NCBI GenBank assembly: GCA_016199805.1
Contig: JACQGC010000005.1
Location: 6,019 to 70,018 of the forward strand
Direction of reading: 5' to 3'
Length of the DNA stretch: 64,000 nucleotides
DNA from: Candidatus Nomurabacteria bacterium
GTDB taxonomy: Bacteria > Patescibacteriota > Minisyncoccia > Phycocordibacterales > UBA9973
Below the pieces are notes generated by a model that worked only from the letters and a program-made list of their open reading frames with translations, was not told the origin of the DNA and did not search any database. Positions 54,458-56,596 of this stretch are shown here, one piece after another. Position numbers and translations under genes: made by a program. How positions within the stretch are numbered: the first letter of the stretch is position 1; each line of letters begins with the position of its first letter.

Positions 54458-56596
54458 TTATTTCAGCATTTCTAAAAATTCTTTTTCATTTAAAATTTTC
54501 ACTCCGAGTTTTTCGGCGTTTTTTAGTTTAGAACCCGGCTCCTCTCCGGCCACCACATATGAAGTATTTTTGGACACCGAGCCGACGACTTTGCCGCCTT
54601 GAGCCAAAATACGTTCTTTGGCTGTCTCGCGCGACATTTGCGCGAGCGTGCCCGTTAAAACAAAATTCATTCCGGTAAATTTTCCGGCTTTTGTTTTTTC
54701 CATCTTTTCCACCAGCACTCCATTTTCCTGAAGTTTTTTTATGAAATTCAAATTATTTTTATCGTTGAAAAATTCACCCACGCTCTTGGACACCGCCGGA
54801 CCGATGTTTTCTATATTGTCTATCTGCGTTAGGTCTTGCCTAGCGCAGAAAAGTAGTTTTTCGAGAGTGCCAAAGTGCGTGGCTATGTCTCGCGCAGTTT
54901 CCTCTCCTACGTGTAGTATGCCGAGCGCCCAAAGAAACTTGGCAAAAGATATTTTCTTTTTATTTTTTATTTCCTGCACGATATTTTCCGCGCTTTTTTC
55001 CCCGAATCTTTCAAGGGGAGAAATGTCTTCTTTGGCGAGAGTAAAGATGTCCGCCGCATCGGTTACGAGCCCTTCGTCTTTAAACCGGCGTAGAATTTTA
55101 GGACCGAGCTCGTATATCTCAAAAACCGAAACAAAATGTTCCAAATATCTTTCGTTTTTGGCGGGGCATTTTGGATTGGAACAGTAAAAGGCGACAGAAG
55201 ATTGCGCCAGAGAAGAATTCTGAACGCGGAAGGTTCCGCCCGAAGGGTGGAGTAATGCGGAGGAATTCTTCTCTGGCGCAATCTTCTTCTCTACTTTGCT
55301 CCCGCAAGTTGGGCACGTCTTTGGCATTTTAAATTTCTTTTCTTTTCCGGTGCGCATCTTGGAAAGCACTTCAACCACTTTCGGAATCACGTCTCCGGCT
55401 TTTTCTATGACCACAGTGTCGCCAATTTTCAACCCCAGACGCTCTATTTGGTCCATATTGTGCAAGGTTGCTTTGGAAACAGTGGAACCAGCCACCAGGG
55501 TCGGCTCGAAAATGGCTAGTGGTGTAAGCACTCCGGTGCGTCCGACATTTACTTTTATGTCTTTCACTATTGTTGTGGCTCTTTCGGCGGCATATTTAAA
55601 TGCTGCCATATACCGCGGCGCTTTGCCGACAACCCCTAAAACTTCCTGCAGCTTTAAATCATCCACGGAGACAACCACACCATCCGTGCCAAATGGAAAA
55701 TTCGGTCTTATCTTTTCAAACTTTTTTATAAAAGTAATTACTTCCCCTAAGTTTTTGCATACCGCATCGTTGTCATCAACCCGAAAACCTAAATTTTTTA
55801 AATATTTATGTTTATCAGAGTGAGTTTGTAAAATTTCTGAAGATTTTAATTCGGCAATATCATATGCAAAAAAATCTAACTTTCTTTCTGCTGCCAGCTT
55901 TGGGTCCAGCTGTCTCAAACTTCCGGCAGCGGCATTTCGGCTATTGGCAAAGAGCGGCTTGCCCTCCTTTTCGTTTTTTTTATTCAGAGCAATGAGAGTT
56001 TTTTTGGACATCAACACTTCGCCGCGAACTTCAAGAAATTGGGGAATATTTAAATCACCACCCCCTGCCCCCTCCTCCGAAAGGAGGGGGGATAAATTCA
56101 ACGGAATAGAATGTATAGTTTTTAAATTTTGAGTTATATCTTCACCAATAAAACCATCCCCTCTCGTGGCCCCGCGCGTAAAAATACCGTTTTCGTAAAT
56201 AAGCGAGACGGCTAAACCGTCAAACTTCACTTCGCAAAAATACACCTCACCCCCTAGCCCCCTCCCCTTATAAAGGAGAGGGGGTAAAAGTTTCTTTATC
56301 CTTTTTTCCCAATCCAACAATTCTTCTTCACTAAAAACATCGTTTAAAGAAAGCATTCTGGTTCGATGCTTTACTTTTATAAATTTATCTAGCGGCTTGC
56401 CGGCAACTCTGTTTTCCGGAGCGTTTATGTCATTAAGCTCTGGATATTTTTGTAAAAGTATTTTTAGTTCTCTGGTGAGGGAGTCGTAAACATCGTCGGT
56501 GACACTCGGATTGTTTTTTACATGGTACTCTTCTCGCAGACGCGCAATTTCACTTCGCAGTTTTGCTATTCTGTTTTTCTCTTCATTTCCGTTCAT
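54458..56596 (-). CDS. ligA: NAD-dependent DNA ligase LigA. It carries two short in-frame insertions encoded by GC-rich palindromes.
   Basis: The KxDG adenylation motif is CEVKFDG. OB, Zn-finger (CPTCGS), HhH and BRCT domains are present. Relative to the canonical LigA alignment there are extra loops, [12 protein letters not shown] and [13 protein letters not shown]. Confidence 0.93.
56048..56090 (-). repeat. GC-rich palindromic element inserted in-frame in ligA. It encodes [13 protein letters not shown].
   Basis: AATCACCACCCCCTGCCCCCTCCTCCGAAAGGAGGGGGG contains a hairpin CCCCCTCC/GGAGGGGG. It shares its 5' 22 nt with the pheT copy. Confidence 0.6.
56243..56285 (-). repeat. Second, more diverged GC-rich palindromic in-frame element in ligA. 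It encodes [14 protein letters not shown].
   Basis: CACCTCACCCCCTAGCCCCCTCCCCTTATAAAGGAGAGGGGGT contains a hairpin CCCCTCCCC/GGAGAGGGGG. Confidence 0.5.

Follow-up and report, generated by a model that had tools for sequence, protein, structure and literature searches.

Short repeats that can fold into an intrastrand triplex have been described in bacteria under the successive names BoxC, PIT elements and TM or TMECO motifs (Holder et al. 2015, NAR, PMC4666352, where the earlier BoxC work and that of Maher and colleagues, 2000, are cited). The class II motif consists of a pyrimidine, a purine and a reverse-Hoogsteen domain. The TM motif is abundant in enterobacteria and cyanobacteria and its single strand forms a stable triplex in vitro, the in vitro data being those obtained with TMECO (PMC4666352). 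In Escherichia coli K-12 the copies are "always" intergenic and show no association with phages; no promoter or terminator activity was found for the motif, which has been linked to local genomic instability, small deletions included (PMC4666352). Two other systems concern repeats inside genes, namely the Rickettsia palindromic elements (RPEs), symmetric palindromes of about 100-150 bp that form ten Rickettsia-specific families (Ogata et al. 2000, 2002, as reported in PMC10969869), and the intragenic enterobacterial repetitive intergenic consensus (ERIC) and small enterobacterial mobile sequences (Delihas 2007, as reported in PMC10969869). Here we analyzed a 64-kb stretch of a contig from Candidatus Nomurabacteria (Patescibacteria, or Candidate Phyla Radiation, CPR), hereafter called the window, to which the coordinates refer. 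An earlier note on this DNA had pointed to GC-rich palindromic elements lying in frame in ligA (NAD-dependent DNA ligase) and pheT (beta subunit of phenylalanyl-tRNA synthetase, PheRS), and had compared them with RPEs. We propose, with good confidence, that these three elements, which are 32-41 nt long and are called below c1 and c3 (ligA) and c2 (pheT), are class II triplex repeats of the BoxC/PIT/TM type that landed in coding sequence, are translated as loops and undergo a fast turnover.

The three elements display the same order of parts: a pyrimidine arm, a loop, a purine arm, a linker of 2-3 nt and a G-rich tail (Table 1). The tail repeats the purine arm in mirror order: a G faces a G, and an A faces a T or an A. 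This mirror relation, absent from the earlier note, is the defining feature of the element. In c1, the core made of the pyrimidine arm CCCCCTCCT, the purine arm AGGAGGGGG, the linker CA and the tail GGGGGTGGT gives nine perfect G.G-C or T.A-T triads. Our own class II finder, set to at least 8 triads with at most one Watson-Crick and one Hoogsteen mismatch, reads c1 as 10 triads with one mismatch. The same program gives 11 triads for c3, with one Watson-Crick and one Hoogsteen mismatch; the defect is a single A-to-G change in the purine arm, which costs one base pair and one triad, and the c3 orthologue at the related locus L003 (L numbers designate the loci compared) is a perfect 11-bp hairpin. 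As for c2, it has only 7 triads because its loop variant TCACCC truncates the purine arm. Over the whole window, the finder returned c1 and c3 only at 8 triads or more, and c2 in addition at 7 triads, and it found no class II motif in 30 Markov shuffles of the window. The hairpin that the earlier note had read in these copies was recovered for both ligA elements, which fold as single-stranded DNA better than shuffled sequences (z -2.3 for c1 and -3.6 for c3), and not for the pheT one; these ViennaRNA foldings cover the hairpin part only and not the triplex.

We also counted mirror tails independently of the triplex finder. In the window and 80 loci from Paceibacteria, 66 of the 153 strand-readings of G-rich homopurine hairpins have a mirror tail within 1-4 nt, versus a rate of 0.37% at random placements. 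The mirror rule holds in addition at three bases beyond the search pattern, as seen in 141 distinct matches among those listed, which come from many phyla: purine-arm extensions GGA, GGG, AGG and AGA go with tails AGG, GGG, GGT and AGT, respectively, CGG goes with GGC, GAG with GTG, and AAG with either GTT or GTA. The tail thus covaries with the purine arm, which is a criterion of the BoxC/PIT/TM family. Read from the sequence, the geometry of the element is that of a class II purine-motif, or reverse-Hoogsteen, intrastrand triplex motif.

The positions of the elements largely bear out the earlier note. All three copies are in frame on the coding (-) strand, inside intact open reading frames (ORFs) of ligA and pheT. 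The 22 nt that it had described as identical between the ligA and pheT copies are an exact 22-mer, AATCACCACCCCCTGCCCCCTC, found at 48870-48891 in the c2 region and at 56053-56074 in the c1 region; its 19-mer core has two matches in the window for 0.01 expected, with 3 mismatches allowed. The diverged ligA copy was also recovered, as c3. LigA had been said to be longer than its E. coli counterpart at both sites, and E. coli LigA (2OWO) is indeed gapped at both of them. Site 1 lies six residues N-terminal of the lysine of the KxDG motif, K124. Site 2 is far from the OB domain near which it had been placed: it lies inside the nucleotidyl-transferase domain, directly before the LEVRGE motif. The GC content of more than 70% attributed to the elements was not reproduced either. 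Recomputed over the spans given in the note, it is 60-64%, and it reaches 72-74% only in the 32-35-nt cores of two copies. GC-rich 30-mers are common in the window, so that GC content alone is not distinctive for the elements. In a scan of the window for GC-rich hairpins, both ligA copies rank as the longest stems and the pheT copy is missed.

The presence of the elements varies among orthologues at all three sites, as seen with proteins sharing 65-85% identity. Since each site has both filled and empty alleles, the earlier view is supported: a dispersed palindromic repeat rich in GC has been inserted in frame and in a lineage-specific manner. The 120 closest LigA relatives listed are 71-85% identical and 667-784 aa long. 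Empty LigA loops read LLPANTKFNYFCEVKF at site 1 and PLxLxKP-YPEYLEVRG at site 2, and other relatives have there an element or something else; the short allele is found in 45 of 74 distinct LigA orthologues at site 1 and in 35 of 74 at site 2. In a codon alignment with three close relatives, a 27-nt hairpin, CCCCCTCTCCTTTATAAGGAGAGGGGG, is present in the window and in L003 and corresponds to an exact gap in L001 and L004. Despite this gap, L001 and L004 keep at site 1 the tail-like codons GTA GGA GGT GAG GTG. At the PheT site, L003 is empty (EKLPDGD) where the window has ERLPPLLSPEGAGGGD, and the site is filled in about 14 of the 120 orthologues listed, in two slightly different registers. At their ends, the elements coincide in part with codons for Pro (CCN) and Gly (GGN) that were already there.

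LigA site 1 is occupied in other genomes by many unrelated perfect palindromes (L130, L135, L137, L166, L138, L190, L184, L202 and others). Some of the short ones make use of the conserved codons for Leu (CTT) and Lys (AAG), as in CTTGGGAGC-TTA-GCTCCCAAG, and some short site-1 alleles are themselves small palindromes. Site 1 is either a palindrome hotspot or a place where a hairpin is favored.

What is conserved in these elements is the DNA and not the protein. At LigA site 1, a single hairpin has two readings, PPLLNKERG in some genomes and, in another frame, SPSPLQGEG in others, both of which rejoin the same frame in the tail (GGEV). Across nine orthologues carrying the site-1 element, the identity of synonymous codons is 0.85 in the element and 0.47-0.52 in the flanks, defined as 40 codons on either side. 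Moreover, some genomes have at LigA site 1 the very hairpin, unpaired loop AAC included, that other genomes have at site 2. The pheT copy of the window and the ligA site-2 copy of L125 are equal, by eye, at 33 of 34 positions, including the odd loop TCACCC, in place of which the ligA site-2 copy of the window has TCGGAG; each of these two loop variants is found at both ligA and pheT across different genomes. Together with the shared 22-mer, the match between pheT and L125 argues for copying or exchange between loci.

On the protein side, we built an AlphaFold2 model of LigA with 60 orthologues, of mean predicted local distance difference test score (pLDDT) 71.9. Six segments have a pLDDT below 50, and three of them, all coil, coincide with in-frame elements (Table 1). 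Both LigA inserts are among these, consistent with the suggestion of the earlier note that they could map to loops, and the model fits the idea that the LigA inserts are surface loops.

We then considered the dispersal of the motif. A metagenome sample of 80 ligA-centred Paceibacteria loci (1.11 Mb, 38% GC) yielded 66 distinct motifs with the finder, of which 30 lie sense and 14 antisense in long ORFs and 22 outside long ORFs; those inside ORFs use all three frames. When a pattern drawn from the copies of the window was run against one genome of each species, at least 120 loci matched. Among the matches listed are Chloroflexota, Cyanobacteria, Bacteroidota, Gemmatimonadota, Planctomycetota, Proteobacteria, Acidobacteriota, Firmicutes and a few CPR lineages; the cross-phyla matches listed share longer stems and a tail continued beyond the bases that the pattern demanded, and about 63% of the pattern matches listed from other phyla lie outside any long ORF. 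The family is bacteria-wide, lies mostly outside long ORFs and is not peculiar to the Nomurabacteria/Paceibacteria lineage. In-frame copies occur nevertheless in housekeeping genes of other phyla (Table 1). In one of them, the Cytophagales LeuRS, the motif adjoins an insertion of a DUF559 endonuclease domain. Finally, at least 120 loci with the motif were found in IMG/VR viral contigs, and the viral loci L205-L284 often have several near-identical, co-oriented copies per contig, many of them outside long ORFs. Phages could be carriers of the repeat, which is dispersed over loci, genomes, phyla and viral contigs.

Table 1. Host genes, triplex elements with their parts, other in-frame palindromes, and examples of the motif in other genomes and viral contigs (positions in the window unless a locus is named).
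Feature	Position	Strand	Description
ligA	54458..56596	-	NAD-dependent DNA ligase, 712 aa; intact ORF; hosts c1, c3 and the zinc-finger palindrome
pheT	47176..49023	-	PheRS beta subunit, 615 aa, without B2 tRNA-binding domain; intact ORF; hosts c2 and the linker palindrome
c1	56056..56090	-	triplex motif, ligA site 2; LigA aa ~169-181
c1 pyrimidine arm	56081-56090	-	CCCCCTCCTT
c1 loop	56078-56080	-	TCG
c1 purine arm	56068-56077	-	GAGGAGGGGG
c1 linker	56066-56067	-	CA
c1 mirror tail	56056-56065	-	GGGGGTGGTG
c3	56244..56284	-	triplex motif, ligA site 1; LigA aa 105-118
c3 pyrimidine arm	56274-56284	-	CCCCCTCTCCT
c3 loop	56269-56273	-	TTATA
c3 purine arm	56258-56268	-	AGGGGAGGGGG
c3 linker	56255-56257	-	CTA
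c3 tail	56244-56254	-	GGGGGTGAGGT
c2	48876..48907	-	degenerate triplex motif in pheT; PheT aa 39-50, PPLLSPEGAGGG
c2 parts	48876..48907	-	pyrimidine arm TCCCCTC, loop CTTTCACCC, purine arm GAGGGGG, linker CA, tail GGGGGTG(GT)
LigA zinc-finger palindrome	55196..55287	-	second in-frame family, 92 nt; LigA aa ~437-467
PheT-linker palindrome	47470..47552	-	third in-frame family, imperfect, 83 nt, before the FDX-ACB domain; encodes NSPLEEYPLGGGGKIIHPGTSATPQEGN
LigA segment, pLDDT <50			aa 110-115 (c3)
LigA segment, pLDDT <50			aa 172-181 (c1)
LigA segment, pLDDT <50			aa 440-466 (zinc-finger palindrome)
L013, Cytophagales			in-frame triplex motif in LeuRS
L021			in-frame triplex motif in AlaRS
L041, Peregrinibacteria			in-frame triplex motif in FtsJ/RlmE
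L043, Nostoc			in-frame triplex motif in PriA
L100			in-frame triplex motif in MnmE
L242, viral contig	49-11339		6 copies in 11.8 kb
L210, viral contig	1345-9622		5 copies in 9.6 kb

The triplex motifs are not the only palindromes found in frame in these two genes. The palindrome in the LigA zinc finger has perfectly complementary arms of 25 bp around a 42-nt spacer (dG -63.9 kcal/mol). L129, L143 and L126 have its 37-nt core at the same LigA site, and L160 and L149 have it elsewhere in LigA (aa ~258), with 90-100% identity at both places; its peptide recurs in the PheT linkers of other genomes. In the PheT linker, the earlier note had suspected a fourth, degenerate copy at 47465-47545; the sequence there belongs instead to the imperfect palindrome of a separate dispersed family. 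This palindrome is 93% identical over 85 nt in the pheT of L203; in L165 it falls early in a 222-aa ORF, and L139, L156 and L197 have it outside long ORFs. From one orthologue to another, the PheT linker is hypervariable. In L003 (15604-17254), pheT is called as two ORFs of 452 and 102 aa with the break exactly at this variable linker, which may reflect a genuine split of the gene, a frameshift or a fault of the assembly.

The PheRS of the window is a reduced one (47176-49743): residue 51 of PheT is aligned to residue 155 of the E. coli protein, and PheS is only 235 aa long. We considered whether PheT lost its B2 domain in connection with the element, and rejected this. The 120 PheT orthologues listed all are 589-661 aa long and have no Pfam match for the tRNA-binding domain, and this is the case with or without the element, so that B2 loss is unrelated to it. 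Other repeats were noticed in the window. A 64-nt repeat with a hairpin, CCCGTAATCAAAAATTTAGTACGGG, is found at 35077-35140 and 47090-47153 (80% identity), one copy lying between gyrB and pheT, and may be a regulatory or terminator element. An AT-rich motif, AACTTTATAAACTTT, of about 39 nt each, occurs at 41906, 42896, 47369 and 58548, with at least two copies just beyond ORF ends, and may be a promoter or another regulatory signal. A giant ORF of 2263 aa at 7896-14687 (-) has internal repeats and GC-rich stretches.

How could such elements have come to lie in essential genes? A single strand of such a sequence can fold back into a hairpin whose major groove takes up the tail. We propose that some copying process would place the motifs anywhere in the genome. 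Within genes, only inserts free of stop codons and keeping the frame (3n) would persist, in tolerant surface loops, and the survivors would be translated as loop peptides rich in Pro/Leu and then in Gly. The copies could exchange sequence with one another, and they would decay by point mutation or lose their hairpin by slippage. The exact 27-nt gap at LigA site 1 supports such a hairpin loss and agrees with the deletions reported for TMECO; replication slippage would then be the way in which elements are lost. On this basis, the elements would be selfish or neutral passengers filtered by selection, and the triplex or hairpin would form only transiently, in single-stranded DNA.

Other explanations have to be weighed against this one. 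The hairpin itself could be selected in ligA and pheT, at the DNA or mRNA level, for instance as a pause or a regulatory structure, the variety of palindromes then being covariation. The unrelated perfect palindromes at LigA site 1, some of them on conserved CTT...AAG codons, would suit such a role, as would stems better conserved than loops and the conserved synonymous sites. It is nevertheless unlikely, because the frequency of short alleles at both LigA sites makes the long insert dispensable, because the same families also have members at unrelated positions, within other genes, outside long ORFs and across other phyla, and because the hairpin is already decaying in c3 and c2. If, on the other hand, the peptide PPLLxxEGxGGG were a functional protein motif under convergent selection, one would expect the near-identical peptides that LigA and PheT share and that recur in orthologues. 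This would not account for the same DNA being read in other frames or antisense into unrelated peptides, for a codon choice fixed far beyond that of the flanks, for the copies outside long ORFs and the many orthologues without the peptides, or for the low-confidence coil given by AlphaFold, and we regard a protein motif as very improbable.

Two further possibilities concern the origin of the elements. Errors of replication, by template switching or slippage in C/G runs, could create them anew at each site, with no copying involved. The two registers at LigA site 1 would follow from +1/-1 shifts in C/G runs that compensate each other, and palindromes are typical of template switching. However, template switching makes inverted repeats and not mirror repeats, and the tail requires a mirror repeat; besides, non-homologous sites share structurally unconstrained loops and linkers as well as the exact 22-mer. 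Such a de novo origin is the explanation to which we give the least credit. Miniature transposons of the RPE or MITE (miniature inverted-repeat transposable element) type, mobilized by a transposase in trans and recognizable by terminal inverted repeats and target-site duplications, come closer, as these dispersed palindromes lie in frame in essential genes unrelated to one another and are variably present among orthologues, which is the RPE pattern (PMC10969869). Yet the elements measure 32-41 nt versus about 100-150 bp for RPEs, they consist of an asymmetric hairpin with a one-sided tail and are not bounded by terminal inverted repeats, the comparison of filled and empty alleles reveals no target-site duplication, and the motif is spread over many phyla with no transposase or integrase remnants near the E. 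coli copies (PMC4666352). We thus hold this transposon origin to be improbable, somewhat more so than a selected hairpin and less so than a functional peptide.

The proposal of triplex repeats landed in coding sequence has to face several observations as well. For the E. coli motif, footprinting with dimethyl sulfate detected no stable triplex in living cells, purine-motif triplexes do not form in RNA, and the surroundings of the copies contain no transposase or integrase remnants (PMC4666352). The first two points make the triplex a structural potential rather than a shown activity, and any role of the hairpin or triplex inside genes would likewise be a potential only. In the window, the strict TMECO consensus, CCCTCNCCC-N3-6-GGGNGAGGG-N3-GGGNGAGGG, has no match, and c2, with its mere 7 triads, folds no better than shuffles (z +0.5). 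No target-site duplication is visible at the insert sites when filled and empty alleles are compared, and the translation of the inserts is deduced from intact reading frames. The count of gains and losses, at least 8 state changes for the 9 tips that carry the site-1 element, is a rough figure, which rests on a neighbor-joining tree and a crude regular expression misclassifying some sites. In addition, the Paceibacteria sample being centred on ligA, about 30 of its 66 copies lie in that gene and the counts are not independent. All these points weigh against our proposal, which we still judge to be the probable one.

A broader view would be that the triplex repeats, along with at least two families of tiny palindromes, are actively spreading ultra-small elements of the CPR, possibly carried by phages, which repeatedly colonize the same tolerant loops of essential enzymes and form a main source of protein-length variation in these reduced genomes. 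We put this forward tentatively, as it is somewhat more likely to be wrong than right. If true, the translation of selfish DNA within housekeeping genes would be a general bacterial process, touching also LeuRS, AlaRS, PriA, MnmE and RlmE, and not a peculiarity of Rickettsia, and the BoxC/PIT/TM repeats would gain a measurable evolutionary effect. These repeats have had neither a function nor a copying mechanism since their first description, and they are treated as intergenic in PMC4666352. The present elements show that such a repeat can enter coding DNA and persist there, in DNA ligase, PheRS and other housekeeping enzymes, and would carry the RPE paradigm, in which selfish DNA shapes proteins, over to the CPR and beyond. 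The many natural pairs of filled and empty alleles offer a source from which the rules of insertion and deletion could be drawn. In practice, the inserts inflate and diversify the lengths of CPR proteins, as in LigA (667-784 aa at more than 70% identity), and can mislead alignment, annotation and structure prediction.

It remains to place the elements among the known systems of small repeats. The resemblance to RPEs noted earlier is one of behavior, as in both cases palindromic repeats lie in frame in unrelated housekeeping genes that stay intact and are variably present among relatives. It does not amount to membership, which, compared with the description of RPEs, we rejected on the grounds of length (32-41 nt), of asymmetry, the hairpin being followed by a G-rich mirror tail, and of a family found across bacteria. 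An identity with MITEs was rejected in the same way, for want of terminal inverted repeats and of a target-site duplication between filled and empty alleles. The repetitive extragenic palindromic (REP) sequences and the bacterial interspersed mosaic elements (BIMEs) that they form, mobilized by REP-associated tyrosine transposases (RAYTs), are likewise short (20-40 nt), GC-rich, imperfectly palindromic and highly repeated, but REPs are extragenic and species-specific and have no mirror tail. On the 5' side of their hairpin, REPs have a conserved GTAG, which is absent from the three coding-strand flanks AATTTATC, GACTTCCT and AACTTTTA; this absence and the mirror tail led us to reject a REP identity. 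The genes called in the syntenic loci L001-L003 include no Pfam match to a Y1 transposase. The ERIC sequences also are small repeats occasionally found inside ORFs, to which they add peptide segments, but with about 127 bp they are larger, belong to other sequence families, lack the triplex architecture and are rarely intragenic. Against Rfam, the ligA region produced only two weak matches of the kind expected by chance (E 4.4 and 6.9), and none of 18 motif-bearing loci reached the gathering score of a family.

The likeness to BoxC/PIT/TM repeats goes further. It includes the same order of parts, a G/C-rich composition, stems of about 9 nt, loops less conserved than stems, loss by small deletions and a presence in many bacteria, cyanobacteria included. 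The class II order and triads are found in c1, c3 and c2 (10, 11 and 7 triads), and the motif is multi-copy and dispersed, with 3 copies in the 64 kb of the window and 66 in the 1.11 Mb of Paceibacteria loci. The differences lie elsewhere. The arms found here, CCCCCTCCT/AGGAGGGGG and CCCCCTCTCC/GGAGAGGGGG, are unlike the TMECO consensus; TMECO is intergenic in E. coli K-12 whereas the three copies of the window are all inside intact ORFs; and the broader motif is abundant in viral contigs, in contrast to E. coli TMECO, which has no phage association (PMC4666352). Our literature search found neither triplex motifs in coding sequence nor RPE-like elements or in-frame palindromes in Patescibacteria/CPR, and a text search for the tail sequence brought up unrelated papers only; we therefore rate the context as new: the repeat class itself is already known, and what is new is its occurrence in coding sequence. 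Because the tail mirrors the purine arm, we place the elements in the BoxC/PIT/TM family of intrastrand triplex repeats, of which they are, judging by their sequence, members in a broad sense rather than strict TMECO motifs.

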